Positions 2,472 through 60,189 of a stretch of 64,000 bases of DNA are shown in pieces. Numbering within the stretch: position 1 is the first letter of the stretch; every line of letters starts with the position of its first letter. The stretch is from NCBI GenBank assembly GCA_047608975.1, contig JBLFYM010000009.1:15826-79825 (forward strand), in the 5' to 3' direction. This stretch comes from Limisphaerales bacterium. Its GTDB lineage: Bacteria > Verrucomicrobiota > Verrucomicrobiia > Limisphaerales > JAYPXF01. The notes beneath the pieces were generated by a model that saw only the letters and a list, made by a program, of their open reading frames with translations, did not search any database and was not told the DNA's origin. A program made the translations under genes and the position numbers.

Positions 2472-5400
2472 TCAATTTCCGAATCGCGTTACCTTGCCAT
2501 CCTTGGTCGCAACGAAAAGAGATTTGTTGGCCACGGCCATGCCATCCCAGACTGGCAAGGCCTTCAACGGCAGTTCGACCTTTTGACGACCGTTGCTGAC
2601 GGAGACTGCCCACAGCTTGCCGCCCTGTGCGCCCTGCAGGGCCTGATCCTGCTCACGCAGCAAGCTGTTGATGGATTCGTCCTTCTCCATGATGCGTTCA
2701 AAGGCGTATTCCTCGTCCATCACGTCCGGCGGTCCGGCCACGATCAGAGTATCACCAGCCATCGCCATCGCCTGGGCAAACATCGGAACCGTTCGTGCCC
2801 AATCATGGGCAACATGACTGCCACTCGCTTTGCTCGCCCCGCCTTTGCGAAACCAGAGCGCGCTGCCGACCTTCCCCTTGCCAAAATCCACCCCGGTAAT
2901 TTTTCCGTGGTTCCCCTTCCCGCTCCGATCCTGAGCGTTCTTTTCAAACGAACTCGCCACCGCCGCTTCCGAATCCAACGAACGTGACTTCTCCGGGTCC
3001 CGATGAATGGCTGCGATCTCGACCGCGGACAACGCGCGATGAAAGACCCGCAATTCATCGATCAAACCGGTGAATGTGAAGTTTGCTTTGTAATTCCCGA
3101 CCGAACTGCCGCTGTCAATGCCGACGTCCATTCCCTGCTTGGGTTTTGAAGAGATCAGGCCGGTGGCCTTCCCTTCGGCCACAAGTTCACCGTTCAGGTA
3201 GAGGCGCATTGATTTGTCTTCCCCCAGCACTCCGGCCACATGGCTCCAGCCGCTCTCCAGCGCCGAGTCGGATTTGATGACGACCAGTTCTGAGTCTGCC
3301 CGGACGAGGAAGCTCGGTCGATTGCGGGTAAGGGTGAGTGCGAATCCGTTCAGCGGTCCGCCATGGGCAACCACCACGCCGGCTCCTTTGTCCGGGAACA
3401 CCCACGTTTCCACGGTGATCGCTTTACCCGTCGGGTCGGAACCACTGGCAGCGAACAACGCGCCACCCACTGCCGGGCCACGTCGATTGCCCGGAGCCGG
3501 TGCTTTGGGGATTTCACGCGGAGCAGAGAACAGTTTGTGCTCAATGGTTGTGGTCCATTTCAGATATTGGGCTTCCCGTCCAAAACCGTAAACGTTGGTG
3601 TCATTGAAAACCATCATGCGACCGGCCGGAGCGTATTTGCCGGCCTGGTAGTAGCCGTTGTGTCCACCTGCAAAATTCTTTCCATAGACCCAATACGCAC
3701 GGTGGAAATAGGTATCGTCCAGATAACCCATCGGCGCGAACAGATGGGCACCCTCGCCCTGCTGCGCCGCACCTTGGGCCGCTGCGTTTCCAGAGATGGG
3801 ACCCAACTCAAGACGCTCGCCATCTTCGTCAATCTTCTGCGAGCGCAGGTAAGTGTATTTGCCATCACTGCACAGCACGTCCGGCAATCCAACCTGCATC
3901 TGGAGGGTCTCCAGACGGTTCTGGATGTCTTCACCCGTTTCTGGATCCAGATTGTCCCAGGTCTTCTCCATCAGCTTTTTGCCGGTGCGAACGTCCAACT
4001 TGATCAGTCGGAGACCGGTATCCAAAAACGTCGAGCGCCCCGCAACAAACATTGCCGTCCCATCTTGAACCAGCACTGAGCCATGGACCGGCCAGACTGA
4101 TTCAAGTTGCTCGAACGCCATCACCCTACGATCACGCGGTGCGGCTCGGTAACGCCAGATCAGCTCACCGTCTTCAGCGCGCAGGCAATAGACCCAGCCA
4201 TCCACACAACCGAACACAACCCGCCCCTGCTCGTAGGTCGGGGGGGAATCAATACGTCCACCCGCGGTGAATTTCCATTGCGCCTTGCCGCTCTTGGCGT
4301 TCAGGGCGTGAAGGGTGTGTTGATCAATCTGTGCCACAAACACGTTGCCGCCGGCAATGGTCAGTGCGCTGAGCCGTCCACCCAGAGTGATCTGCCAATC
4401 CTTTTTCAATTCCTCGGGAAGCTTACTCGGACTGTAACCGCTCCGTTTGGAATCGTGACGGAAGGTCGGCCAATCCTCCGGACCCGCCGGGGTTTCCTTA
4501 ACCGATTTTGAAAACGCCGGTCCTTTTTCCAATCGGCTCGCTTCATCAATCTTGGCCGGCAATACCGGAGCAGCGGAAGCGGGAGCCAAGGCGTTGAACC
4601 CGTAGAGCTTGGCTTCGGGGTAGCAGGCACAGTTGTGCGGTGGCGCATAGGTCAGTCCGTTGGCCGGCATGACGCCGTAGAGACAGCCGCCCCGAACCCA
4701 GTGATTGATGTTCCAATCTTCCTTCTTGTGATCGACGAATTCGATCCCTGTGCGTGAGGGCATCAGAAAGTTTTCCGTCGCCTTCGCAAGGTAACAGCGA
4801 TGGTGAAACCAATAGGTGCTCACGTTCGGGGCAAACTGCTGCTTTATCTCGCCGGTCCGCGGATCGCGTCCCGTGTATTCACCCGTGTGCCGACCACTGG
4901 TGGTCGGCGCGGACCAGACCAATCCGGCGACGACCAAAAGATCCTGCGGCGATTGATACCCGGAAGGGTCATGCGTCGATTCCCAAAGCTCCTTACCCGT
5001 GCTCAAATCAAAGCTCTTCATTTTTCCGTCGCCTCCGGCAAAGAGAACAACGTCCTTATAGATCACCACGCGAGGTGCGAAGTTGAACGGAATCAGGCTG
5101 CGCCGACTGGTGCTGCCGCTCTTCCAAAGTTCCTTGCCCGTGTTGCGATCGTTGCAGATCAGTCGATCGCCGTCGTGATGGATGACCACCTCATCATTTG
5201 CAACCAGGGAGAGGGGCGAGATCTTGTCCGACAGATTCCACCGTTCTTTGCCGGTCTTGGTATCGAAGACCCGGATCTCTCGCGGCTTCGCGTTCCAGAC
5301 AAATTCGGTCGCCACGCGTTTCTGATCACCCACATTGTGTGCCGGTGCGTAATCCTTGAGTTCCCAGCCACTCTGGCGGGTGAGAACAATCAGGCTCTCC

Positions 5401-6317
5401 CCCGAATGCACAATCTCCTCCGCGCGCTTACTTTCCTTGAAGGTTTGCAGGGTCTCGCCCGTCGCGGCGTCCAGCTCGAGCACTTCGCCCTCAATATCCA
5501 AGGTCACATAAATGACACCTTCGCCGGCGACCAGGCGTCGCGCCAACTGGGTGGGTCCACTCTTCAAGGGCCAGAGTTGGTGATGCCATTTGCTGATGTC
5601 GCGTTTCCAAAGAATCGTTCCGTTGAACGCGTCGCGCGCAATCAGTTTCCACCGCGAGGGGAGCTGAATCGAAACGCGGGAACCTTCATCCATGATGTAA
5701 AACAACCGGCCGCCTCCGGATACCAATGCGCTCATCGATGCCATGCGATCGTGATGTCGCGACCAACGTGGACTGCCCACCCACTGCATCTGCCGGGGCG
5801 GTCCCACCACCGTATCCTGTGCGACCGCGTTTCCGCTTGGTCCATGAAAATAATGTGTCCAATCATCGATCTCCTCCGGCCTGGCCTTCACAATCTTTTG
5901 CCACTTGCCGTTCTTTCCTTTGACCATCGCCACACCCTCGGGAGCCAAAACCCGCTTCATTTCCTCGACGGAGACGCCAAAGCTTTCCTCGGCGACGATC
6001 AGGTTCACGAAATTATCTATGTAAGGAAGTTCCGCGTTGTCAACTCGATCAACAGATATGGGACCATACTTCCCCTGCCCATGCAGTTCCTTCCGCGCCC
6101 GCGCGATCCGCTCGGGCGAGACGTCGAGCCCATGGACAAGATAGCTGTCGCTCAGTCGGTACCCAGCCAGTTTACCGGCTTGGGCATTGCCCAAATGGAC
6201 AACAAACCCGCCTTTGACACCAGATTGGCTGACCACCGAACGATTCGCCAAAGCAACGGATTGCACCAAGAACGCACTCAGCGTGCACCAAAGGATTTTT
6301 GAAAAACTTTTTAGCAT
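2472..6317 (-). CDS. Giant secreted PQQ-like beta-propeller repeat protein with an N-terminal methyltransferase-like domain and a C-terminal LamG/concanavalin-like domain
   Basis: ORF 2472..6365. The likely start is MLKSFSKILWCTLSAFLVQSVALA at 6317 (signal peptide). Repeated propeller strings of the form G..LW....G occur, for example ATGETLQTF, NTGKELWKS, STGKELWES, KSGKAQWKF and EDGELIWRY. The LamG-like part reads LYLNGELVAEG...FTGLIDELRVFHRALSAVEIAAI. Confidence 0.75.
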   Translation of the reverse strand: MLKSFSKILWCTLSAFLVQSVALANRSVVSQSGVKGGFVVHLGNAQAGKLAGYRLSDSYLVHGLDVSPERIARARKELHGQGKYGPISVDRVDNAELPYIDNFVNLIVAEESFGVSVEEMKRVLAPEGVAMVKGKNGKWQKIVKARPEEIDDWTHYFHGPSGNAVAQDTVVGPPRQMQWVGSPRWSRHHDRMASMSALVSGGGRLFYIMDEGSRVSIQLPSRWKLIARDAFNGTILWKRDISKWHHQLWPLKSGPTQLARRLVAGEGVIYVTLDIEGEVLELDAATGETLQTFKESKRAEEIVHSGESLIVLTRQSGWELKDYAPAHNVGDQKRVATEFVWNAKPREIRVFDTKTGKERWNLSDKISPLSLVANDEVVIHHDGDRLICNDRNTGKELWKSGSTSRRSLIPFNFAPRVVIYKDVVLFAGGDGKMKSFDLSTGKELWESTHDPSGYQSPQDLLVVAGLVWSAPTTSGRHTGEYTGRDPRTGEIKQQFAPNVSTYWFHHRCYLAKATENFLMPSRTGIEFVDHKKEDWNINHWVRGGCLYGVMPANGLTYAPPHNCACYPEAKLYGFNALAPASAAPVLPAKIDEASRLEKGPAFSKSVKETPAGPEDWPTFRHDSKRSGYSPSKLPEELKKDWQITLGGRLSALTIAGGNVFVAQIDQHTLHALNAKSGKAQWKFTAGGRIDSPPTYEQGRVVFGCVDGWVYCLRAEDGELIWRYRAAPRDRRVMAFEQLESVWPVHGSVLVQDGTAMFVAGRSTFLDTGLRLIKLDVRTGKKLMEKTWDNLDPETGEDIQNRLETLQMQVGLPDVLCSDGKYTYLRSQKIDEDGERLELGPISGNAAAQGAAQQGEGAHLFAPMGYLDDTYFHRAYWVYGKNFAGGHNGYYQAGKYAPAGRMMVFNDTNVYGFGREAQYLKWTTTIEHKLFSAPREIPKAPAPGNRRGPAVGGALFAASGSDPTGKAITVETWVFPDKGAGVVVAHGGPLNGFALTLTRNRPSFLVRADSELVVIKSDSALESGWSHVAGVLGEDKSMRLYLNGELVAEGKATGLISSKPKQGMDVGIDSGSSVGNYKANFTFTGLIDELRVFHRALSAVEIAAIHRDPEKSRSLDSEAAVASSFEKNAQDRSGKGNHGKITGVDFGKGKVGSALWFRKGGASKASGSHVAHDWARTVPMFAQAMAMAGDTLIVAGPPDVMDEEYAFERIMEKDESINSLLREQDQALQGAQGGKLWAVSVSNGRQKVELPLKALPVWDGMAVANKSLFVATKDGKVTRFGN

Positions 6318-6445
6318 GGGGTATCGAAATCGGGCGGAAGTAGAACAAGTCCATTCACACCACACAACAACGAAGCAATCCGCATTCGTCCGGCCAATTG
6401 AACTTGCCTGAATACTTCAAGATTCCGATCCTCGGCTGCAACGCC

Positions 6446-7660: not shown

Positions 7661-7993
7661 TTAGCCAGCGCAGCGGATACACATGACCGCATCGGGCTGA
7701 ACTTCCAACCGATCTTCGGCGATGGGTTTCCGGCACTTGCCGCAGATTCCGAATTTGCCATTCTCGATATTCTTGAGCGCCCGCTCAACCCGCAGCAATC
7801 GCGCCTCCTGCCGGCGTTTCAACTCCAGGGCCATCTGCTGATTCTGCATCGCGTCCATGCGCGACAGTCGTCCGATGGCGGTATCCAATTCCACCACCGC
7901 AGTCTCCTGAGTGTTTGAATTCAGGCCATCCCGAATTTCCTTCGTCAACTCCGTCAGCAATTTTCGAAAATGTTCCAATCGCTCGGAGGTCAC
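7661..7993 (-). CDS. TraR/DksA-family C4 zinc-finger protein
   Basis: 110 aa with a coiled-coil N-terminal half. The C-terminal motif CGKCRKPIAEDRLEVQPDAVMCIRC is CxxC-x17-CxxC. The start overlaps the sulfatase stop by 4 nt. Confidence 0.85.
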   Translation of the reverse strand: MTSERLEHFRKLLTELTKEIRDGLNSNTQETAVVELDTAIGRLSRMDAMQNQQMALELKRRQEARLLRVERALKNIENGKFGICGKCRKPIAEDRLEVQPDAVMCIRCAG

Positions 7994-9573
7994 TTACGAT
8001 TCCCCTTCTTGCGTGGCGGTTCCGCGGCGTGCGACTCCCTGCCCGCCTTCCAGATATCTACGGTGGCCGTGTTCTTCCTTTTGGGGCCAGGCGTCGAACG
8101 GCCTCGGTCAACATAACTCTGAAGCAATTGAGACAACTTTGCGACCACCTGCGGATGTCGGGCTTGGACGTTCTTCGTTTCACCAATGTCCGCATCCAGA
8201 TCAAACAACTGAAGCACCGGCATTTCGCTGAAATCGCTACGTCCGGGACGCGGAGAGCTCCAACCTCCCGAACCCGGGCACAGCGCCAACTTCCACTTGC
8301 CCTGGCGAATCGAAAACGTGCCGTTGATCGAATGATGCACCGTTGCCTCCCGCAATGGGTTCTTATCCCGCCCCAACAATGCCGGGAGAAAACTCACACT
8401 GTCTTCGGCCGCATTCTTCGGAACCCGTTGCTCAATGATGGCAGCAGCGGTCGCGAAGAGGTCGCTCTGACAAATCGTCTGCGAACTGATCGTGCCCGCC
8501 TTCACCTTCCCGGGCCAACGGGCGATGAATGGAACGCGATGTCCACCCTCGAAGATATCCGCCTTGTGCCCGCGATAGACATCACTGGGAAAATGTCCTT
8601 TCGCGGCGAGCTCTGCGAACTTGGCCTGCGGTGAACACCCATTGTCCGTCGTAAAGATCAGCAGCGTGTTGTCGGCCAGTCCAGTCCGATCCAAGGCCTT
8701 CATCACCTGGCCAACAGTCCAGTCAACCTGCATCGTGAAGTCGCCGTATTTGTTCAGCCCGCTCTTGCCCAGAAATTCCTTGGTCGGACTGATCGGTGTA
8801 TGTGGGGCGTTCAACGGGAAGTAGACAAAGAACGGTTTCCCGGCTTTGGATCGCGCCGCGTTGTCACCGATGAACTTCACGGCTTCCTCCGTGATTCGTG
8901 GAAGCACATCCACATCTTCGAAATCCACATCAGCCGGGCCCTTACGAGGAAAACCCTTGGTGACAATCTTCGTCACCAGCGGCTTGTCGTTCCTAATGAA
9001 CACATAGGGCGGCATGTCGAGTGACGCACTGATTCCGAAGAAATAGTCAAAACCCACCGTGGTCGGTCCCTGCTTCACGGGCTTCAGGTAGTCGACCTCG
9101 TAAGCATCGGCGAAATCCTTGACGAAGGTGTCGCCATCGTCTGCATAGCCGCCCCTCTTGAGTGGCCAATTCATTCCCATATGCCACTTGCCGATCGCCG
9201 CGGTCCGATAGCCATTCTTTTGCAGAAAGTTTCCCACGGTAATCCGATCGGGCTCAATCAAACGGCGTGACCACCCCCAGCAGACGCCACTCTGCAACCG
9301 TGATCGCCAGTTGTAGCGCCCGGTCACAATGGCATAGCGCGTGGGAGTACAGACCGACGAACTGGAATGCGCATCGGTGAACGCCATTCCTTCAGAAGCC
9401 AACTGATCCAGATGCGGCGTCTTGATCTTGCACCGCTCACTCAAGACGTCCACATCCCCCACCCCCATGTCGTCCGCGAGAATGAAGATGATGTTAGGAT
9501 TCGCTGCCGAGAGAAATCCGACAATCGGTGTAAGAAACACCAGGGCACAGAGGGAGGCAGTTTTGATCAGCAT
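7990..9573 (-). CDS. Formylglycine-dependent sulfatase (arylsulfatase family)
   Basis: Signal peptide, then PNIIFILADDMGVGD and the sulfatase signature SSSSVCTPTRYAIVTGRY (C-x-P-x-R). GKWHMG follows downstream. Confidence 0.9.
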   Translation of the reverse strand: MLIKTASLCALVFLTPIVGFLSAANPNIIFILADDMGVGDVDVLSERCKIKTPHLDQLASEGMAFTDAHSSSSVCTPTRYAIVTGRYNWRSRLQSGVCWGWSRRLIEPDRITVGNFLQKNGYRTAAIGKWHMGMNWPLKRGGYADDGDTFVKDFADAYEVDYLKPVKQGPTTVGFDYFFGISASLDMPPYVFIRNDKPLVTKIVTKGFPRKGPADVDFEDVDVLPRITEEAVKFIGDNAARSKAGKPFFVYFPLNAPHTPISPTKEFLGKSGLNKYGDFTMQVDWTVGQVMKALDRTGLADNTLLIFTTDNGCSPQAKFAELAAKGHFPSDVYRGHKADIFEGGHRVPFIARWPGKVKAGTISSQTICQSDLFATAAAIIEQRVPKNAAEDSVSFLPALLGRDKNPLREATVHHSINGTFSIRQGKWKLALCPGSGGWSSPRPGRSDFSEMPVLQLFDLDADIGETKNVQARHPQVVAKLSQLLQSYVDRGRSTPGPKRKNTATVDIWKAGRESHAAEPPRKKGNRK

Positions 9574-9708
9574 GATTCCCCATGGTTTAGCCCATTACAG
9601 AAAACGAGCAAGAACTCTGCACGCAGCAATTCCACCCAAGCCATTGTGGGGCAAGTCGCCCTGATTAAGCACTTCCGGAAGCGCGCACTCTGCCTTACCA
9701 TAGGCAGC

Positions 9709-11688
9709 ATGCCCAAGGAACCGAGGTCCACGCCGCCCGCAAACGGCATGGACCTCGGTATCCCGATACTGACAGCGATAGTTTTAACAGTGGCTGGGTT
9801 GGGATTGTGGTTTCAGTTTGGCCGCGAGCCGACCCCAAACACCATCAGGGTATCGCCGCCGCCGGTCACCACACCAGGCGGCTCAGAGATCGTTTACACC
9901 AATGGACAACATCCCCAGGGCTTGACTGCGGCCATGCCAAAAATCGAACCGCGTGACGGGTATGTCGGATCGGACGTCTGCCTTGAATGCCATGCCCAAA
10001 ACCATGAATCATGGTTTAATTCATACCATCGCACAATGACCCAAAAAGCCACCGCTGATGTGGTGATGGCGGATTTCGACAACGTTCAAGTCCGCATAGG
10101 CCCCAAACCTGAGGTCTACAACCTGAGCGTGAGCCAAGGCCTGTGTTTTGTGGAAATGGGCGAGCAACACAAACTACCGTTCTCGAGACCGAACGCGCGC
10201 ATGCGCTTTCCGATCGCAATGACAACCGGTTCACATCACATGCAGGTGTACTGGTTTCCGCTCCAAGATGGTGCGCTGGGCATGCTCCCGATCGCCTATC
10301 TCAAGGCCGATCGGCGTTGGGTTCCGCGTTCGTCCACATTCCTGACGCCCCATACCGATCTCCTTGGGGTGGAACCAGCGCGATGGAACATAGGCTGCGT
10401 TCACTGCCATACCACCCATGGAGATACCGGTCTCTCTCAACGAAACGGCGTTCCCGAGTACAACACACGGAGTGCGGAACTCGGAATTTCCTGCGAGGCC
10501 TGCCACGGTCCCGCCGCGAAGCACGTTGCGCTCCGGCGTAAAAAAGACGTAGCCCCGGTGGATGACCCAATCGTTAATCCCGCGAAGCTTTCCCCTGCTT
10601 TGTCCGCCCAGACCTGCGGTGGCTGCCACAGTTTCAGCCTGCCACATTCAGAGAACATCACTCACCCGGCCGGGGAACCGTTAACCGCTAGCCGCGCCAT
10701 TCGACGATACGATGAAGCAACCAAAGATTACCTTCGCCGACAGTACGAAAACCTGGGATTGAGCGACGGGGAATTGGAAGACGCGTTGAGCGCGGATTTC
10801 GAAGGCAGTTTTTGGCCGGATGGGATGGTGCGCATTGCCGGGCGCGAGTACAATGGGATGCTCGACACCAAGTGTCACACGGCCGGGGAACTGTCCTGTG
10901 TTTCTTGCCACCAACTTCACAAACCTCGCAAAGATCCCCGTTCATACAAGGCCTGGGCTGACGACCAGTTGCACTCCGGGTTTCGAACTGACAAGGCATG
11001 TACCCAATGTCACGACCCGGCCGCGTATTCAGCAACCACCCATACCCACCACGCCGCCGCATCCAGTGGGAGTCGTTGCTACAACTGCCATATGCCGCAC
11101 ACCACCTACGGTGTATTGAAAGCGATGCGCAGTCACACAATCACCAGCCCCACGGTGCTGGAGTCCACCAAATACGGTCGCCCCAATGCCTGCAATCTCT
11201 GTCATCTAGATCAGACCCTCGATTGGACCGCGCACCATCTGGCTGAACGCTACGGACAAGCGGTTCCTCGGCTGAGTGATGATCAGAAGACGATATCTGC
11301 CGCCCTCAGCTGGGCACTCGAAGGCGATGCCGCCCAGCGCGCCCTGATTGCGTGGTCCATGGGATGGCAGCCCGCCCAAGAGGCATCGTCAGCGGATTGG
11401 CTGACGCCGTATCTCGCCTTCCTCATGACCGACTCCTACGACGCCGTGCGCTACATCGCACATCGGTCTCTGAAAAGTCTTGGTGTATCCGATGCCGACT
11501 ACGACTTCATCGCCGCTCCCGATTTACGAAGCCGAAGCGTGAATCAGATCAGAACCCTCTGGCTCAGGCAGCCACACAAAAAGATTCCCCCAACTGTTCT
11601 CATCAATCCAGATCTCAAAATTCAACATCAGGAGATCGACCGGCTCTTGGCCCGCAGGAATCAGCGACGGATTAGAATGCACGAGTGA
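9709..11688 (+). CDS. Membrane-anchored octaheme c-type cytochrome with a HEAT-like C-terminal region
   Basis: ORF 9367..11688. Its first part is antisense to the sulfatase, so I prefer the start at ATG 9709 (MPKEPRS...), which is followed by a TM helix. There are eight CxxCH motifs: CLECH, CVHCH, CEACH, CGGCH, CVSCH, CTQCH, CYNCH and CNLCH. Confidence 0.8.
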   Translation: MPKEPRSTPPANGMDLGIPILTAIVLTVAGLGLWFQFGREPTPNTIRVSPPPVTTPGGSEIVYTNGQHPQGLTAAMPKIEPRDGYVGSDVCLECHAQNHESWFNSYHRTMTQKATADVVMADFDNVQVRIGPKPEVYNLSVSQGLCFVEMGEQHKLPFSRPNARMRFPIAMTTGSHHMQVYWFPLQDGALGMLPIAYLKADRRWVPRSSTFLTPHTDLLGVEPARWNIGCVHCHTTHGDTGLSQRNGVPEYNTRSAELGISCEACHGPAAKHVALRRKKDVAPVDDPIVNPAKLSPALSAQTCGGCHSFSLPHSENITHPAGEPLTASRAIRRYDEATKDYLRRQYENLGLSDGELEDALSADFEGSFWPDGMVRIAGREYNGMLDTKCHTAGELSCVSCHQLHKPRKDPRSYKAWADDQLHSGFRTDKACTQCHDPAAYSATTHTHHAAASSGSRCYNCHMPHTTYGVLKAMRSHTITSPTVLESTKYGRPNACNLCHLDQTLDWTAHHLAERYGQAVPRLSDDQKTISAALSWALEGDAAQRALIAWSMGWQPAQEASSADWLTPYLAFLMTDSYDAVRYIAHRSLKSLGVSDADYDFIAAPDLRSRSVNQIRTLWLRQPHKKIPPTVLINPDLKIQHQEIDRLLARRNQRRIRMHE

Positions 11689-11736: not shown

Positions 11737-13272
11737 TCATCCGACCGTTTCTGCGGCATGTCGCGATTGGCGCTTGGGGCCTGCGACCGCTTTCGCATCC
11801 TTCCCCCTCGCCGCCTCACTTATGTGCCCTCTCAGCGGAAGGGGGATATCGTTTCTCCCCGCACACTGATAGTCAGCCAACAACCTGGAGGCCGCCAGTT
11901 CCGGATCCACACCGTTCATCTCAGTCAGATACCCGAACACAAAGCCAACGAGTTGGGTCAGTGCAATCCCATGGCGACGCCCGGCTTTCTCCGCCAGATA
12001 GTCTGCAAAACTCAGAAAGGCCTGAAACGGCGATCTGTCTCCCGCCCAGATCAATTCTCTTGAGCTCACAAAATTCCCACTGTTCCCGACCAGATCCCAG
12101 TAACGGGCGAAACGACGCATCCGTTGGAACGTGGCGAAATCCAGATCTCGATTTGAGAGTATTTCAAACGGGGGATGAGGACTGTAGATCATTTTGAATT
12201 CGTCATCGTGACGAATGATCGGTGTTCCTTTGAGTCGCTTCAGAATGCCTATCTGAATCTCCTGCGGTCGCATTTTCACGAGCCGATCGAATCCCGTGCC
12301 AAACGAGTCCAAGGTTTCGCCGGGTAATCCCACAATCAGATCGGCGTGGATATGCACCCCGGTATCCCCACGTAGAAAGTGGAAGTTGTCCGCCATCTTG
12401 TCGTAGTTCTGGCGGCGGCTGATATGGGCCGATACCTCGTCGTTAAATGTCTGGATCCCGACCTCGAACTGAAGCGCGCCCGGTGGGAACTTTTTGATCA
12501 ATTCCCGCAGTCCTTCAGGAAGACGATCAGGGATCATCTCGAAGTGCAAAAACAGCCCGTCAAAGAAACGTTCCAGGAAGAATTCCAGAATCGCCTCACT
12601 CACCCGCATATTGAGGTTAAACGTCCGGTCCACAAACTTGAACTCCTTGGCTCCCCGTTGAAGCAATCCCTCCATCGCACCGAGGAACCGATCCAGATCA
12701 AACGCACGAACCGGGATGTCGAGTGAGGACAGGCAAAACTCGCAGGTGAAGGGGCAACCGCGGGAGGCTTCAACATAGATCACGCGATGAGACAAATCCT
12801 CTTCAGTGTAGAGATCGTAGGGCAGTTCCAAGTCCGCCAATTTGGGCAGCAGCGCCGGAATAACCCGCGAGGTTGGGGCTGCGCCGTCCAGAATCTGAGA
12901 GCAAACGCGTCCGAATTCCTGGTCCGCTTCTCCAGTGATCGTATAGTCGGCCAGCTCGACGATGGACTGTTTCCCCGTATCAAAACTGACCTCAGGACCA
13001 CCCAACAGAATCTTCACCGCCGGTGCCAGGCGACGAATCAGCGCGATAACTTCCTCTGACTGGGTCGTGTTCCAAATGTAAATCCCGAAGCCGATAATCT
13101 TGGGATTCAACGCCAGGAGTCGCTCAACGATTTCGAGCGGACGCTGGTTGATGTCGAATTCAACCATCGTTGTTCGGTCCTTCAATTCGCCCATATTCGC
13201 GAGCAGATATCGCAAGCCAAACGAGGCGTGGATATACTTGGCGTTGAGCGTGGTGAGAACGATTTCCGACAC
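11737..13272 (-). CDS. B12-binding-domain radical SAM protein (DUF4080-type)
   Basis: The N-terminus VLTTLNAKYIHASFGLRYL is typical of the DUF4080 rSAM family. The SAM cluster motif is EASRGCPFTCEFC (CxxxCxxC). Confidence 0.8.
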   Translation of the reverse strand: MSEIVLTTLNAKYIHASFGLRYLLANMGELKDRTTMVEFDINQRPLEIVERLLALNPKIIGFGIYIWNTTQSEEVIALIRRLAPAVKILLGGPEVSFDTGKQSIVELADYTITGEADQEFGRVCSQILDGAAPTSRVIPALLPKLADLELPYDLYTEEDLSHRVIYVEASRGCPFTCEFCLSSLDIPVRAFDLDRFLGAMEGLLQRGAKEFKFVDRTFNLNMRVSEAILEFFLERFFDGLFLHFEMIPDRLPEGLRELIKKFPPGALQFEVGIQTFNDEVSAHISRRQNYDKMADNFHFLRGDTGVHIHADLIVGLPGETLDSFGTGFDRLVKMRPQEIQIGILKRLKGTPIIRHDDEFKMIYSPHPPFEILSNRDLDFATFQRMRRFARYWDLVGNSGNFVSSRELIWAGDRSPFQAFLSFADYLAEKAGRRHGIALTQLVGFVFGYLTEMNGVDPELAASRLLADYQCAGRNDIPLPLRGHISEAARGKDAKAVAGPKRQSRHAAETVG

Positions 13273-13358: not shown

Positions 13359-14129
13359 TTATTTCATGCACGCTGCCTGGCGCGCATCATCGACGGTCTC
13401 AATCCCGTCCTTGGTCAGCACTCGGATCGTGGCAAAGGCCTGCCGTTCAGGGTCGACTCCCCCGGTCGCAGAATCAAACTCAGCGGCGGTCATCAGGAGG
13501 CGGAGCGCAAAGCGAACGGCCTCATCACGCGACATCTCGGAAGGATTGGTATTTCCGTATTTCGATTCGTAGCTGATGACGCTGCGGATGGTCATGGACC
13601 CGGATCCGGTGGTCGCAAAACCAACCGCCTGGAACTGGGCACCAAGCGGATCGTAAAAGAAGATCTGTGGCCGTGGTGAATTGGAACTCTGATCCACACC
13701 CGCAAATATCGGAACCACAATCCCAATTCCTTGCAGGGTCATCGGAACATTGTCGCGCAGCAAGCGGGCCAATGCCCGCACCTTGGCAGCGAGGCTCAGC
13801 GGCTGAAGTTGGCTCCGGCGATAGTATTCGAAGGAGGTTTGCAGGACTCGGGCCATTTCGAAGGCAGTGGCAGGCACTCCGGCAATGGCCAGCAGCGAAG
13901 TCGCGTCGAGTTCGATCACTTTCTCCACGGAATCCGTGACGATCAGATTTCCGGCGGTGGCGCGACGATCCCCCACCATCATAACGCCCTCGGAAAATTC
14001 GAATGCGAAGACGGTTGTACCATGGGTCTGCTCAGGGGCGGCAGACGTCGCGCGCACGTTCAACGGTGGAATGGAACGGGCAGTCAACAGGGAAAGAAAA
14101 TCTCCGGCAATCTGATTGGATTCGCTCAT
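13359..14129 (-). CDS. prcB: 20S proteasome beta subunit (PrcB-like) with a 37-aa propeptide
   Basis: The processing site is ...EQTHG/TTVFAFEF. Counting from that Thr gives Asp17 (VGDRR) and Lys33 (SVEKV) in canonical Ntn-hydrolase spacing. The ATG overlaps the stop of the upstream small ORF (ATGA). Confidence 0.85.
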   Translation of the reverse strand: MSESNQIAGDFLSLLTARSIPPLNVRATSAAPEQTHGTTVFAFEFSEGVMMVGDRRATAGNLIVTDSVEKVIELDATSLLAIAGVPATAFEMARVLQTSFEYYRRSQLQPLSLAAKVRALARLLRDNVPMTLQGIGIVVPIFAGVDQSSNSPRPQIFFYDPLGAQFQAVGFATTGSGSMTIRSVISYESKYGNTNPSEMSRDEAVRFALRLLMTAAEFDSATGGVDPERQAFATIRVLTKDGIETVDDARQAACMK

Positions 14130-14299
14130 TGTCCGGTGCGTTGCCGATAGCGCTTGGCCTGGTCCGGATCGACTTTTTTCATCCGTTTCAAGAGATCCTG
14201 AACATCGGGCTTCTCCACCTTGGGTTCGCTGGGTCCCGCGCCATCTCCCCCGGGACCGTCTGGTCCGCCGGAACGTTCTTTTTGTTTTTGATCAGGCAT
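14126..14299 (-). CDS. UBact/Pup-like small protein modifier (57 aa)
   Basis: An internal ATG at 14299 of track ORF 14126..14365 lies 2 nt after the dop stop (TAG, 14302-14304). The product is MPDQKQKERSGGPDGPGGDGAGPSEPKVEKPDVQDLLKRMKKVDPDQAKRYRQRTGQ. It has a disordered G/P/K/E-rich N-terminal half, a helical C-terminal half and a terminal RTGQ. It sits in the canonical position between dop and prcB. Confidence 0.8.
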   Translation of the reverse strand: MPDQKQKERSGGPDGPGGDGAGPSEPKVEKPDVQDLLKRMKKVDPDQAKRYRQRTGQ

Positions 14300-14301
14300 T
14301 G

Positions 14302-15828
14302 CTATTCGGATTTGTGGTTCAGCAGAAACCGGAATTCGTCCGGGGTTTCGGCTTTTTCGATGCACGAACGATAATGCAGAACGTCAGCCGGCGCGAACAA
14401 ATCGAGCAGCGAAATCTTGATCTCCTGTTGCTCCCCTTGCAGCACCACATGATCCCATTGTGCGGCGAGCACCTGTTCCGGGAATTTGCCGATGCAACGT
14501 CCGCGAATAAATGCGCGGGTGGTATCCGGTGGTTCTTTCTGCGCGGCACGTGCCGTGGCCGGATTTGGAATTGATCGAATGGAACCGCTCTGCTCGAGCC
14601 CGAAGTACAAACCAGATTCGAGATCCAGTCGGTGATACTCCAGATCGAGGCTTTGCACCCATGGATCGTCCGGGGCCAGTCCTTGGGACTTTTGGAACTC
14701 GGTAATCAAGGCGTGCTTGGCAACCCAATCCACCCGATCACGGCATCGCAGCGGGTCCGCTTCGAGATCATTCAGGACACGCTCCCATTCCGTAACGGTC
14801 CAGGACGCGTCGGCATGATCCAGCACACATGACTCACGAACCGCATCAAGATAGCGACGTTGAACATCGATCGCATTCGAACCGGAACGATCCTTCAAGG
14901 TCAGGAACCATTGAAAATTCGGATCCCGCGAAATCGATTTTAGAGTATCGACCGGGGCGACGAGTTCAGGCGGTTCCAGATCCGGATTGCGTATCAGGGC
15001 TTCGAGAACCAGAGCCAGTGTTCCGACTTTCAAGCGCGTTGCAAATGGGGACATGTTGGCATCTCCGAGAATGACGTGAAAGCGGCGCCAGTCCGCCGGA
15101 TTCGCATGGGGCTCGTCCCGGGTATTGATCAGCGGACGTTTCTGCATGGTGTCCACACTCTGCCTCACGGTGAAGAAGTCGCTCCGCTGGGAGATCTGAA
15201 AATTGGACGCGAGCAGTTTGTCTTCGCCCTCCACTGCGAACTTCCCCGCGCCGGCAAAGATCTGGCGCGTGACCATGAACGCCTCGATGGAATGCACCAA
15301 TCGTTCCCATGAAAGCGACCGGGGAAGCAGGTAGTTCTCGTGACATCCGTAGCTGTGTCCCCGGAAATCGGTGTTGTTCTTGTAGATTCGAACCGTGGCG
15401 CCCCGTTCCGCCGAGAGACGTTCCGCACAATCCATCACAATCTGTTCGCCCGCCCGATCGTGCGCGGCCAGTTCGTCGAGCGTAGAACATTCAGGGGTGC
15501 AGTACTCCGGGTGGGCGTGATCGTTGTAGAATCGCGCACCGTTACTCAGGGCAAGATCGCTCTTGATCTCGGCGAAGGTAAGTTCGCGCTGGGCGTCTTG
15601 GGCAAAGTAGTTGGATTCATCGTAGTCCTGCCGCAGTTCCTCCACTTTGAACCCGCGCACATCCGCATGCGGATCTTCGGCGGCGTAGTCCCATTTCATT
15701 CGCACCCCGGGCGCAAGCGCACTGCGCACCAGGGCGATGGACTCCGCGACAACGTCCAAGTCTTCGGCATCATCTCGCGTGATGCCGTACTCAGTTTCGA
15801 TGCCAAAATGGATCAACAGTTTGTCCAC
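14302..15828 (-). CDS. dop: Pup-ligase-family enzyme, Dop-like (deamidase/depupylase type)
   Basis: GIETEYGI at the N-terminus. RMKWDYAAEDPHADVRGF is followed by an extra loop, then SNGARFYNDHAHPEYCTPEC and YGCHENYL. DHAHPEY plus the loop resembles Dop as I recall it, not PafA (DVGSHPEY, no loop). Confidence 0.75.
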   Translation of the reverse strand: MDKLLIHFGIETEYGITRDDAEDLDVVAESIALVRSALAPGVRMKWDYAAEDPHADVRGFKVEELRQDYDESNYFAQDAQRELTFAEIKSDLALSNGARFYNDHAHPEYCTPECSTLDELAAHDRAGEQIVMDCAERLSAERGATVRIYKNNTDFRGHSYGCHENYLLPRSLSWERLVHSIEAFMVTRQIFAGAGKFAVEGEDKLLASNFQISQRSDFFTVRQSVDTMQKRPLINTRDEPHANPADWRRFHVILGDANMSPFATRLKVGTLALVLEALIRNPDLEPPELVAPVDTLKSISRDPNFQWFLTLKDRSGSNAIDVQRRYLDAVRESCVLDHADASWTVTEWERVLNDLEADPLRCRDRVDWVAKHALITEFQKSQGLAPDDPWVQSLDLEYHRLDLESGLYFGLEQSGSIRSIPNPATARAAQKEPPDTTRAFIRGRCIGKFPEQVLAAQWDHVVLQGEQQEIKISLLDLFAPADVLHYRSCIEKAETPDEFRFLLNHKSE

Positions 15829-15874: not shown

Positions 15875-17575
15875 CTAAACCGCCGACGACGAACTTCGTT
15901 TCTTACGCACCGGTCCGAGTCGAACGACGTTCTCCGGATCGAAGTCGGTCAGCTTCAACCAGTCTTCAGTGAGATCCGTCGCCGGAAAGAGATCGTTTTC
16001 TTCATACTCCAATCGCAAAGCGTTCGCCAAATCGTCCCGGCTGATAGCAGGGTCTTTCGCGCCATCCACCGCGCGCCGGATGGCAAGACTCTTGGCCCGT
16101 TCGACCACTGCGGCAATGATGGCCCCGCTCGCGAGGTCGCCGCGATGCAGAACCTCCCGGCGGCCACTCCGATAGTCAACCTCCAGAAATTCATTCTCCG
16201 CGCTACGCGCAAAGTGGCTCGCTGAAACAAAATCAATCAAAGCATCGCGGTCTTCCGCCATGGGGAGAGAATCCTTGAGGTAGATATCGTAGATGGCCCG
16301 TGCGCCGTCAGCGTCCGGCCGTCTGACCCGAATCTTGCGATCGATCCGTCCGGGACGAAGGATTGCCGGATCGATCAAATCAGCGCGATTCGAGGCCAGG
16401 ATAACCACTGTATTCTGAAGCGGTTCAATCCCATCCATCTCTGTGCAAAACATCGGCACCACCGTACTGAGCATGCTGTTGAACCTCCCTGCATGCCGCG
16501 TGCCTAGAATTGATTCAGCCTCGTCGATGAAGAGGAATGCGAGCGAGCCGTCTTTCGCACGCTCCCGGCATTGGGCAAAGAGATCGCGAACCTGACGTTC
16601 ACTTTCTCCCACCCACATGTTCAGAATCTCCGGCCCTTTCAGATGGAGAAAAAACTCCGGTCGATCCACGCCTGTCTCGGTAAGAATCTGTTGCCGCAGG
16701 TTGTACGCGGTGGCTTTGCCCAACAGGGTCTTCCCGCAGCCGGGAGGTCCATGCAGAAGGAAGCCTTTGGGAACATGATGCTCGAACTTTTCGAAGAGAT
16801 CGCGATGCAGAAAAGGCAGTTCGATCGTATCCCGAATTGCCGCCAATGCCTCGTCCTGACCACCAATCGCAGACCACGGAACCGCAGTCACCGTCTCCAG
16901 CGAACGCTCGACCCGTTTTCCAATCCCAATCACCTCCAACGCCACGCGTTGATTCGAATCAAGCCGGATATCCATCCCGGTCTTGAGTTTCTCCTTGGCC
17001 AGCAAATCCGATCGCTGGACCACCAATGATCCTCCCCCACCCTCTTGTCCAATCCTCAAACGACCTTCGGAAAGCAATTCATCGACTCGAACTATGGGCC
17101 CGTTCTTGTCAAATCCCAACGCAGCCACAATGGCATAGGCTTCGTTGCAAAGCAGACGCTGGCCGATCTGCAATTCCGTCACCGGAATAGTGGGATCAAC
17201 CTTGCATACGTAGTCAGTCCCACTGACGCAGACATGAACCTGCTCACGTTCAAGAGCCCCGAGAAAAGTTCCCATGCGTAGTGCAGGAGCGCGCAGTTTG
17301 TCCACGATCTCGTCGAACTTCTCCAACGCCTCGCGGGCGGCATCATTGGTCTCCTCCATCGCGGCGACGCGTTCGCGAAGATAGACGAGGTCGATGAGGG
17401 CACTGTTTCGGGAAGGGATCTTGGAAGCCACCAAGTCGAGAATCTGAAGAATGGAAAGTTGGTCCAATTCTTCCCGACTGAGCAGACCGCTGAGCGACAC
17501 GTCTCCCTCATCCATCTCAAAAGGATCAGCGAGGGGATTGGACTGTTTACGCAGCGGATCCGGCGGTTCATCCAT
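15875..17575 (-). CDS. mpa: Proteasome-associated AAA+ ATPase (Mpa/ARC-like)
   Basis: N-terminal coiled coil, then OB-like region. Walker A is GPPGCGKTLLGKA, pore loop MWVGESE, Walker B FLFIDEAES. It lies directly upstream of dop on the same strand. Confidence 0.85.
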   Translation of the reverse strand: MDEPPDPLRKQSNPLADPFEMDEGDVSLSGLLSREELDQLSILQILDLVASKIPSRNSALIDLVYLRERVAAMEETNDAAREALEKFDEIVDKLRAPALRMGTFLGALEREQVHVCVSGTDYVCKVDPTIPVTELQIGQRLLCNEAYAIVAALGFDKNGPIVRVDELLSEGRLRIGQEGGGGSLVVQRSDLLAKEKLKTGMDIRLDSNQRVALEVIGIGKRVERSLETVTAVPWSAIGGQDEALAAIRDTIELPFLHRDLFEKFEHHVPKGFLLHGPPGCGKTLLGKATAYNLRQQILTETGVDRPEFFLHLKGPEILNMWVGESERQVRDLFAQCRERAKDGSLAFLFIDEAESILGTRHAGRFNSMLSTVVPMFCTEMDGIEPLQNTVVILASNRADLIDPAILRPGRIDRKIRVRRPDADGARAIYDIYLKDSLPMAEDRDALIDFVSASHFARSAENEFLEVDYRSGRREVLHRGDLASGAIIAAVVERAKSLAIRRAVDGAKDPAISRDDLANALRLEYEENDLFPATDLTEDWLKLTDFDPENVVRLGPVRKKRSSSSAV

Positions 17576-18832: not shown

Positions 18833-20596
18833 TCAGAGTTTTGTCACGTAGGCGTAATAGGCACCGCACTTGTTGCCATCTTTGTCCGAGAACTTCGCCC
18901 ACATCTCGTCGTTGCCGGCTTCCAATTTTACCCGGAACTTTGCGTTCGTCGCACCTGCTTTGAGATTCGTGGTCAGTTCATTTCCTCCGAGAGTCAGGTG
19001 GGCCCGAACGGCCGAAAACGACTTTCCATCGTTCGCGCGATAAGCACGCGCTCCGGGAACTTGGGGGCCCGCGGGAATCGAAGCGCTGATTGCTTCGTTC
19101 AATGTCTTCGGCCAGCGGCGGAGTTCAACCTCGTAGTTACCGGTCTTGATCACCTTCACGGCCCAGAAGCCCGTGGATTTTTCCGCTGTCACCAGCTTGC
19201 GGATGTGGGCCTGATTCCACGGCGTGCTTCCGTCCGTGATCCAGTCATGTGAGGTCAGGCGAACCGGATTTGCCTTGGGGTGACCCAGATAAATCTCCGT
19301 TGTGAGTTTGAAGGACGGTTCCAGATCAGCCCACCACTTGTCATAGAAACCGGTCAGGCGCTGAACGACCTTCGGGTTCTTCTCAGCGATATTGTATCTC
19401 TGACCGGGATCGGCATCGATGTCGTACAGTTCCTTGCCATTGTTCAGGCGCCAGCGATCGGTCATGACCGCACTCTTGCGCCACTTGATCGGATCACGAA
19501 CCCGTTGGGAGTCGGTGACGAGAATCCGATCGGGCCAGTTCTTGGCCGTGCCATAGAGCAGCGACTTGATGCTGGTCCCGTCAAACTTCACGCCCTTCGG
19601 TGCGGGAACGCCGCACATGTCGATCAAGGTAGGAACGACGTCCACATACGAAGTGATCTTCTTCACATCATGGCCGCCGCCAAGTTTTCCATTGGGCCAA
19701 CTGATGAAGAACGGGACACGATGACCGCCATCATATTCGCTCCCTTTCTGCCCACGCATTCCGTCATTGAATATCTTGGCGCCACTGGAGGAGCCATTGT
19801 CCGTCGTGAAGATGAGAATGGTATCATCCTCAAGCCCGGTTTCACGGAGGAACGTCCGAAGTTTGCCGACGTTGTCGTCGATGTTCGCGATCATTCCGTA
19901 GAAGTTCGCCACGTTCACATGCAGCTGTTTGTAAGGAAGGCTGTATTTCACCGGCGAATGCATGGGGCCGTGCGGCGCGTTCATGCACAAGTAAACCAGG
20001 AACGGGTTATCCTTCTTCTGTTGTTCCTTCATGAACTTCTTAGCTTGGTTGAAGAAGACGTCCGTGCAGAAGCCCTTGGCTGGGACCGCTTTTCCGTTGA
20101 ACCAGTAAGAGCCGTCGAAATAGGCATTGTCCCAGTAGTCAGGAGTCTGTCCGACTCCGCCGCCGCCATGGCGATAGACCCATTCGAACCCGCGATCTTC
20201 CGGACGATACGGATAGTTGTCACCCAGGTGCCACTTGCCGATCATGGCGGTCGAATATCCGCCATCCTTGAAGATCTGCCCGATCGTCACTTCGTTCGCG
20301 CGCAACATCGAGCGGCCCATGATCGTATGCCAAACCCCCGTGCGATTGGTCCAATGCCCGGTGATCAACGCGGCGCGCGTGGGCGAACAGGTGGGTGCCA
20401 CATGGTAGTCTGTCAGACGAACACTCTCGTCGTGGAGCTTGTCGAGATTGGGTGTCTTCAACACCGGGTTCCCGTGACAGGAAAGATCGCCATAACCCTG
20501 ATCATCGGTGATCACGATCACGACGTTGGGTTTCTTGGCATCAACCGATCCGGCGACGCAGGCAATGGCCGTAAGGAGGGAGAGGATTTTCTTCAT
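18833..20596 (-). CDS. Formylglycine-dependent sulfatase with a C-terminal beta-sandwich extension
   Basis: Signal peptide, then PNVVIVITDDQGYGD, the signature APTCSPTRAALITGHW, and GKWHLGD. Confidence 0.9.
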   Translation of the reverse strand: MKKILSLLTAIACVAGSVDAKKPNVVIVITDDQGYGDLSCHGNPVLKTPNLDKLHDESVRLTDYHVAPTCSPTRAALITGHWTNRTGVWHTIMGRSMLRANEVTIGQIFKDGGYSTAMIGKWHLGDNYPYRPEDRGFEWVYRHGGGGVGQTPDYWDNAYFDGSYWFNGKAVPAKGFCTDVFFNQAKKFMKEQQKKDNPFLVYLCMNAPHGPMHSPVKYSLPYKQLHVNVANFYGMIANIDDNVGKLRTFLRETGLEDDTILIFTTDNGSSSGAKIFNDGMRGQKGSEYDGGHRVPFFISWPNGKLGGGHDVKKITSYVDVVPTLIDMCGVPAPKGVKFDGTSIKSLLYGTAKNWPDRILVTDSQRVRDPIKWRKSAVMTDRWRLNNGKELYDIDADPGQRYNIAEKNPKVVQRLTGFYDKWWADLEPSFKLTTEIYLGHPKANPVRLTSHDWITDGSTPWNQAHIRKLVTAEKSTGFWAVKVIKTGNYEVELRRWPKTLNEAISASIPAGPQVPGARAYRANDGKSFSAVRAHLTLGGNELTTNLKAGATNAKFRVKLEAGNDEMWAKFSDKDGNKCGAYYAYVTKL

Positions 20597-60114: not shown

Positions 60115-60189
60115 GGGTTGGTAGCTCAATGGTAGAGCAGCGGCCTTTTAAGCCGTTGGTTCTCGGTTCAAGTCCGAGCCAGCCTACCA
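60115..60189 (+). tRNA. tRNA-Lys (anticodon UUU), CCA encoded
   Basis: Cloverleaf folded by hand. Acceptor stem GGGTTGG/CCAGCCT with two G-U pairs. D arm GCTC-AATGGTA-GAGC. Anticodon arm GCGGC-CTTTTAA-GCCGT (anticodon TTT). Variable loop TGGTT. T arm CTCGG-TTCAAGT-CCGAG. Discriminator A, then CCA. Confidence 0.9.

Follow-up and report, generated by a model that had tools for sequence, protein, structure and literature searches.

A UBact gene in an Mpa-Dop-UBact-PrcB operon of a Limisphaerales bacterium

Introduction

The modifier of the actinobacterial Pup-proteasome system is Pup, a small protein that is disordered over most of its length, helical towards the C-terminus and ends in Gly-Gln/Glu; its gene lies beside Dop and proteasome genes. 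The protein is deamidated and then joined to its targets by a gamma-glutamyl-lysine isopeptide bond, a chemistry that is also presumed for the UBact family. Pup-like proteins consist of a bihelical unit plus an extended tail, and members ending in G[EQ] were described outside Actinobacteria in 2008, in the Verrucomicrobia-Chlamydia clade, Nitrospirae, Planctomycetes and one deltaproteobacterium (Iyer et al. 2008, PMC2588565). Here we analyse a 64-kb stretch of DNA from a Limisphaerales bacterium (contig JBLFYM010000009.1 of assembly GCA_047608975.1; "the window" denotes this whole stretch), in which a 57-codon gene matching the UBact family lies between genes for a Dop-type enzyme and a PrcB-like proteasome subunit.

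The UBact family was reportedly named in 2017 by Lehmann, Udasin, Livneh and Ciechanover. Lehmann et al. 2017 (BBRC 483:946) is cited in passages of PMC12751074 and PMC12441361. Proteins of this family are 56-58 amino acids (aa) long, with a Gly/Pro-rich N-terminal half and an invariant end, KVDP[DE]QA[KR]RYRQRTG[QE], and in Verrucomicrobiota they are encoded directly 5' of PrcB and 3' of a Dop-type gene. Conjugation has been demonstrated for Pup, whereas for UBact we found no experimental demonstration of it in the literature searched. Ubiquitin, the archaeal SAMPs and the bacterial ubiquitin-like proteins of the TtuB/BilA type are likewise small proteins attached through their C-termini to lysines, and in some cases they direct proteins to the proteasome. 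They differ in having an unrelated fold and in using E1-type adenylation and thioester chemistry, while the enzymology of the UBact/Pup type relies on a glutamine-synthetase-fold carboxylate-amine ligase/hydrolase pair (PMC2588565).

Results and discussion

A UBact gene fills the dop-prcB junction

The small gene is the third of four genes that lie head to tail on the minus strand of the window, in the order Mpa-Dop-UBact-PrcB:

15875 to 17575, minus strand: Mpa/ARC-like proteasomal AAA+ ATPase, 566 aa, first gene of the operon; Pfam domains Prot_ATP_ID_OB_N, Prot_ATP_ID_OB_C and AAA
14302 to 15828, minus strand: Dop-type deamidase/de-conjugase of the Pup_ligase family, 508 aa; Pfam Pup_ligase, 484 bits
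14126 to 14299, minus strand: UBact gene, small modifier of 57 aa with the C-terminus ...KRYRQRTGQ
13359 to 14129, minus strand: PrcB-like proteasome beta subunit, 256 aa; Pfam Proteasome, 93.8 bits

Read on the minus strand, the junctions run ...AAA TCC GAA TAG ca ATG CCT GAT CAA ... ACC GGA CAA TGA. The UBact ATG lies at 14299, 2 nt past the TAG (14302-14304) that ends the 508-aa Pup_ligase-family gene, and its TGA (14126-14128) shares an ATGA with the start of prcB, the ATG of which is at 14129 and opens that gene as ATG AGC GAA. Because the junctions are so tight (a 2-nt gap and an ATGA overlap), they suggest translational coupling of UBact with dop and prcB. A mechanical search for open reading frames (ORFs) returns a 79-aa frame at 14126-14365, with a GTG start at 14365, whose first 22 codons overlie the 3' end of dop in a different frame before the internal ATG is reached; translation from that ATG yields MPDQKQKERSGGPDGPGGDGAGPSEPKVEKPDVQDLLKRMKKVDPDQAKRYRQRTGQ (57 aa). 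An earlier note on this DNA had proposed a 57-aa ORF filling the gap between dop and prcB, and its account of the ATG, the stop-start overlap, the longer 79-aa frame and the product was correct in every detail.

The product matched the Pfam family PF20513 ("Prokaryotic ubiquitin-like protein UBact") with 79.6 bits (cut-off 27.8) and the NCBIfam equivalog NF033388 ("ubiquitin-like protein UBact") with 80.9 bits (cut-off 35), the latter alignment spanning residues 6-57 of the protein and positions 2-54 of the 54 in the model. A search of a 5.8-billion-protein collection gave 537 homologues at E <= 1e-3, with 82% identity to the nearest; many of them carry the NCBI name "ubiquitin-like protein UBact", and they come from Verrucomicrobiota, Limisphaerales, Methylomirabilota, Omnitrophica and others. 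Across 26 aligned homologues, M1, P2 and the stretch V43-D-P-x-Q-A-x-R-Y-R-Q-R-T-G56 do not vary, and the C-terminal residue is always Q or E, which settles where UBact starts and ends. The window protein ends in KRYRQRTGQ followed directly by the stop, and an RYRQRTG[Q/E] terminus was found at 84 loci. The identification as UBact, which the earlier note had drawn from the R-T-G-Q end, is thus borne out by two independent hidden Markov models (HMMs), both far above their cut-offs, and by the invariance of that terminus.

Compared with five orthologues of the same length, 29-35 of the 45-55 nucleotide differences affect the third base of a codon, and the last 22 codons carry 10-13 synonymous but only 0-3 non-synonymous changes. 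This third-position excess and the predominance of synonymous changes are the signature of a translated frame, and the ORF is presumably translated. Judged by its sequence, it is a real gene and an ordinary member of the UBact family, with no difference of note in the protein itself.

Gly and Pro make up 42% of the N-terminal 31 residues. AlphaFold2, run with the homologue alignment, modelled residues 1-32 as coil (block-mean predicted local distance difference test, pLDDT, 51-63) and placed two short helices at residues 33-41 and 45-55 (block-mean pLDDT 70-78), in agreement with the suggestion that a disordered Gly/Pro-rich N-terminal half precedes a helical C-terminal half. The predicted coil and pair of C-terminal helices match the bihelical unit with extended tail of Pup-like proteins. 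A scan of the operon boundaries for promoters and terminators gave nothing above shuffled expectation (promoter-like, 1 vs 2.3 expected; terminator-like, 9 vs 6.6 expected).

Four public contigs, three of them Logan assemblies and the fourth the NCBI metagenome-assembled genome (MAG) GCA_051270135.1, carry an identical dop, and on all four a 57-aa gene is called at exactly the UBact position. The NCBI pipeline names UBact homologues in hundreds of assemblies of Verrucomicrobiota, Methylomirabilota, Omnitrophota and others. Two claims of the earlier note therefore have to be withdrawn: the gene is not hidden from gene callers, and, with Pup-like proteins reported in 2008 and UBact reportedly named in 2017, it is not new evidence for protein tagging outside Actinobacteria. 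It is a re-discovery of a known and routinely annotated family, and it shows that a small gene of low complexity is recognisable from its sequence alone.

The neighbouring genes resemble Mpa, Dop and PrcB

The enzyme encoded upstream of UBact scored 425 bits against the NCBIfam Dop model and 324 bits against the PafA model, both under the actinobacterial equivalog cut-offs. In a comparison with the PDB, Dop chains aligned over the full length (334 and 299 bits), whereas PafA chains aligned from residue 88 only (211 bits). The protein has the GIETEYG ATP motif. At the site of the Dop-loop it carries 33 residues that the PafA-type paralogues at related loci lack, and the stretch with the catalytic Asp reads YNDHAHPEY, against YVDMGHLEY in those paralogues. 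Such features separate Dop from PafA (Hecht et al. 2020, PMC7947786), and they assign the window enzyme, by homology, to the Dop type and not the PafA type.

The PrcB-like protein scored 169 bits against NCBIfam 20S_bact_beta, under the cut-off of 191.9. Its T38 aligns with residue 1 of the mature PrcB chains of Rhodococcus and M. tuberculosis, giving by alignment a 37-residue propeptide cleaved at G37/T38 and the residues Thr1 = T38, Asp17 = D54 and Lys33 = K70, and a protease containing this subunit would be expected to be active.

The Mpa-like ATPase scored 422.6 bits against NCBIfam pup_AAA, under the cut-off of 504.75. At UBact loci, every Mpa-like ATPase has a small residue and then two hydrophobic ones at its C-terminus (SAV, GVV, AII, GAI, SVI), with or without an adjacent PrcA gene; the actinobacterial Mpa tail is of the Gln-Tyr-Leu type. 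In the window the C-terminus (15875-15925, minus strand) reads ...SSSSAV.

The UBact-PrcB core is constant while the operon varies

In GTDB, sampled at one genome for each species, a scan turned up 452 UBact-encoding stretches, of which the best 80 were fetched. All 80 come from uncultured genomes, labelled mostly as Verrucomicrobiota, Limisphaerales, Methylacidiphilales and Pedosphaera, and the nearest among them, a "Limisphaerales" record (L005), shows 77% identity. The UBact ORF lies directly 5' of PrcB throughout, save at two loci without a downstream PrcB match, and a Dop-type gene lies directly 5' of UBact wherever the locus has one. Conservation of the small ORF and of its C-terminal motif at the same junction had been put forward as a check of the prediction, and it was found across these best 80 loci, with the end RYRQRTG[Q/E].

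Five operon layouts were seen around a common UBact-PrcB core. The commonest is Mpa-Dop-UBact-PrcB-PrcA-PafA (for example L026, L030, L034, L078 and L093); the window operon differs from it in consisting of the first four genes only, without PrcA and PafA. The same four genes alone occur in the window's clade (L001-L005, L040, L064 and L085-L088, including a 4.31-Mb contig) and in a sister group (L007, L013, L017, L022, L046, L065 and L081). Mpa-Dop-UBact-PrcB-PrcA without PafA is found in a Methylacidiphilales-like group and in L055, and the remaining layouts are UBact-PrcB-PrcA-PafA without Mpa and Dop, and UBact-PrcB alone. Because several layouts share the UBact-PrcB core, dispersal of the other components around it is common in Verrucomicrobiota.

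In the clade with the truncated operon, Mpa, Dop and PrcB gave non-synonymous distances (dN) of 0.16-0.28 with saturated synonymous distances (dS), and a dN/dS of about 0.07-0.15 where it was computable. This strong purifying selection on the three genes indicates that the module is in use. A decaying operon remnant was ruled out by these ratios and by the intact catalytic residues. We also considered two UBact loci per genome, one Mpa-Dop-UBact-PrcB and the other UBact-PrcB-PrcA-PafA; no genome appeared twice among the best 80 loci, which leaves that arrangement unsupported.

Several public MAG records with UBact operons of the verrucomicrobial type (L015, L017, L022, L025, L059, L065, L074 and L081) bear the titles Klebsiella pneumoniae, Klebsiella sp., Akkermansia muciniphila, Proteobacteria or Saccharimonadales. 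Mislabelling or mis-binning is the probable cause.

The ligase and the alpha subunit are probably encoded elsewhere

We regard it as likely that the locus holds a genuine UBact gene in an Mpa-Dop-UBact-PrcB operon that serves Pup-like tagging, with the ligase and the alpha subunit encoded away from it. The mechanism that we propose takes the enzymes to act like their homologues in the actinobacterial Pup-proteasome system, and its steps are read from the list of parts. UBact, mostly disordered and 57 aa long, would be made with a C-terminal Gln, which the adjacent Dop-type enzyme would deamidate to Glu. A PafA-type ligase would then phosphorylate the gamma-carboxylate with ATP and join it to lysines of target proteins. 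The Mpa-like AAA+ ATPase may bind the helical C-terminal half of UBact, unfold the tagged protein and hand it to a 20S-type protease containing the window PrcB, and Dop might also strip UBact from its targets. The terminal Gln of UBact is kept in the truncated-operon loci, and its retention beside a deamidase would be pointless unless the Glu so formed went on to be used by a ligase.

Several observations weigh against this reading. Within the window, tblastn with the window Dop and three verrucomicrobial PafA proteins found no second Pup_ligase paralogue, and tblastn with the window PrcB and the PrcA proteins of three related loci found no PrcA, the best PrcA match (E 0.16) lying on PrcB itself. 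The closest relatives, where their contigs are long enough, have neither PrcA nor PafA within ~9 kb downstream of PrcB. With the PafA of L026 as query, no PafA was found on contigs of the window's clade among the best 120 of thousands of matches (those listed having 66% identity or more), and with the PafA of L023 none was found on Methylacidiphilales-like contigs, again among the best 120 of thousands. The NCBIfam equivalog models were built on Actinobacteria, and neither Dop nor Mpa nor PrcB reaches their cut-offs, so the activities assigned to the three proteins are extrapolations. Finally, the sequence similarity between UBact and Pup is not significant, and the helical half of UBact is basic where that of Pup is acidic.

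On the other side, PafA-type genes do occur by themselves in this phylum. Two of the five PafA loci inspected, both in other Verrucomicrobiota, had nothing related within 8-10 kb:

L092, 10001 to 11392: stand-alone PafA-type Pup_ligase gene on a 538-kb scaffold (ERZ12293637)
L094, 8001 to 9404: stand-alone PafA-type Pup_ligase gene of GCA_964589935.1, 72% identical to a Limisphaerales PafA

The surroundings of these two hold no UBact, Prc, Mpa or Dop gene and include, for example, a chromate transporter with YchF, or MetH. Given such stand-alone genes and the dispersed layouts in other Verrucomicrobiota, we think relocation of PafA and PrcA much more likely than their loss, and we infer that both are encoded elsewhere in the genome.

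The alternative that survives best is that PafA and PrcA have been lost, not moved, and that Mpa, Dop, UBact and PrcB work alone. The Dop-type enzyme might then also ligate, or UBact might act non-covalently as an adaptor or regulator of Mpa, and PrcB might form a beta-only protease like HslV, Anbu or BPH. The recurrence of the four-gene layout in the window's clade and its sister group speaks for this, as do the purifying selection on all four genes and the lack of a paralogue in the 46 kb upstream and 13 kb downstream within the window. The functional distance between Dop and a ligase is also modest, since twenty substitutions and deletion of the Dop-loop convert the one into the other (PMC7947786). 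However, the window enzyme retains both the Dop-loop and the DHAHPEY motif, and its alpha-loop is not PafA-like. The Mpa tail is of the same type as at loci that bear PrcA, which still suggests docking to an alpha ring, and both the stand-alone PafA genes of the same phylum and the dispersal seen in the other layouts argue for relocation. We therefore consider such a self-sufficient set of four genes unlikely.

No conserved Mpa-Dop-UBact-PrcB module without an adjacent ligase or alpha subunit was described in the literature searched. It is doubtful that the UBact system of this Limisphaerales-like clade is reduced to four genes, with no PafA or alpha subunit genome-wide; if it were, one or more of three things would follow, namely a ligating Dop-type enzyme, a non-covalent UBact, or a beta-only protease working with an Mpa-type unfoldase. 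A true absence of PafA and PrcA would bear on how the activities of Dop and PafA diverged, and on whether a beta-only proteasome works with an Mpa-type ATPase. Organisms with an operon of the window type are candidates for demonstrating UBact conjugation.

UBact is Pup-like in layout and gene context

The preferred reading, Pup-like tagging by UBact with ligase and alpha subunit encoded elsewhere, likens UBact to Pup in function. Both UBact models matched the protein (79.6 and 80.9 bits), whereas the Pfam Pup model (PF05639), to which the earlier note had also pointed as a test, gave no match even at E <= 10. Conversely, M. tuberculosis Pup did not match the UBact model; the Pup sequence used was confirmed as such by its 79.7 bits on the Pup model. 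A UBact profile searched against the PDB recovered no Pup chain at E <= 10. In hhalign, UBact and M. tuberculosis Pup aligned with E 0.07 and a probability of 0.8%, which is not significant, although the last 26-30 residues align in register right up to the C-terminus (DLL...A..Y.Q..GQ). The C-terminal 26 residues of UBact (14126-14203, minus strand) have a net charge of +4, against -9 over 30 residues in M. tuberculosis Pup, and UBact ends in Thr-Gly-Gln, so that only G-[QE] is common with the Gly-Gly-Gln/Glu of Pup.

The description of the product as Pup-like therefore holds for layout and gene context but not for sequence: by these comparisons UBact falls outside the Pup family. With homologues of Dop, Mpa and PrcB encoded beside it, it is still a reasonable inference that UBact works like Pup. 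Since the modifiers show no significant similarity and their helical halves carry opposite charges, structures of Pup are no ready template for how Mpa, Dop and PafA would recognise UBact. Judged by eye, the Mpa-like protein has an acidic N-terminal coiled-coil region; together with the basic helices of UBact, this hints at an electrostatic match inverted relative to the Pup system.

A closer relation, in which UBact is a divergent Pup and a true sequence homologue to which all knowledge of Pup transfers directly, has some evidence in its favour. Iyer et al. recovered Methylacidiphilum proteins as Pup orthologues with PSI-BLAST and HMMer, with a shared G[EQ] end (PMC2588565), the hhalign alignment runs end to end in register, and the two modifiers have the same gene neighbours. 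Against it stand the failure of either model to match the other's sequence, the absence of Pup chains from the PDB search, the negligible hhalign probability, the TGQ end in place of GGQ and the inverted charge of the helical half, and we judge it very improbable. That the ORF is a chance frame or an untranslated dop-prcB spacer, for which one could cite the low-complexity N-terminal half and the want of an obvious Shine-Dalgarno sequence before the ATG, is next to impossible in view of HMM scores ~50 bits over the cut-offs, 537 homologues, the third-position bias, the excess of synonymous changes over the last 22 codons (10-13, against 0-3 non-synonymous), the invariant start and end, and the lack of any overlapping non-coding element (no Rfam match at the ORF).

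Other genes in the window

Downstream of the operon, on the same strand, lies one further gene:

11737 to 13272, minus strand: B12-binding radical-SAM/DUF4080 gene, 511 aa, 86 bp after PrcB

This gene may be co-transcribed with the operon. A radical-SAM/DUF4080 neighbour also follows PrcB in L005, L040 and L064 (67-69% identity) and not in L086; we know of no functional link between it and the operon. Divergent from it is a long ORF at 9367-11688 on the plus strand, 773 aa in the mechanical translation and 659 aa as called on public contigs, which has multiple CxxCH-type haem motifs and faint matches to Cytochrome_C7/C554.

Elsewhere on the minus strand, a 1297-aa PQQ-like beta-propeller/LamG protein and two sulfatases are encoded at 2472-6365, 7990-9573 and 18833-20596, a gene content typical of Verrucomicrobiota and Planctomycetota and consistent with the phylum to which the related UBact loci point. 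The sole RNA gene in the window, according to ARAGORN and to Rfam at gathering thresholds, is a tRNA-Lys(UUU) at 60115-60189 on the plus strand.

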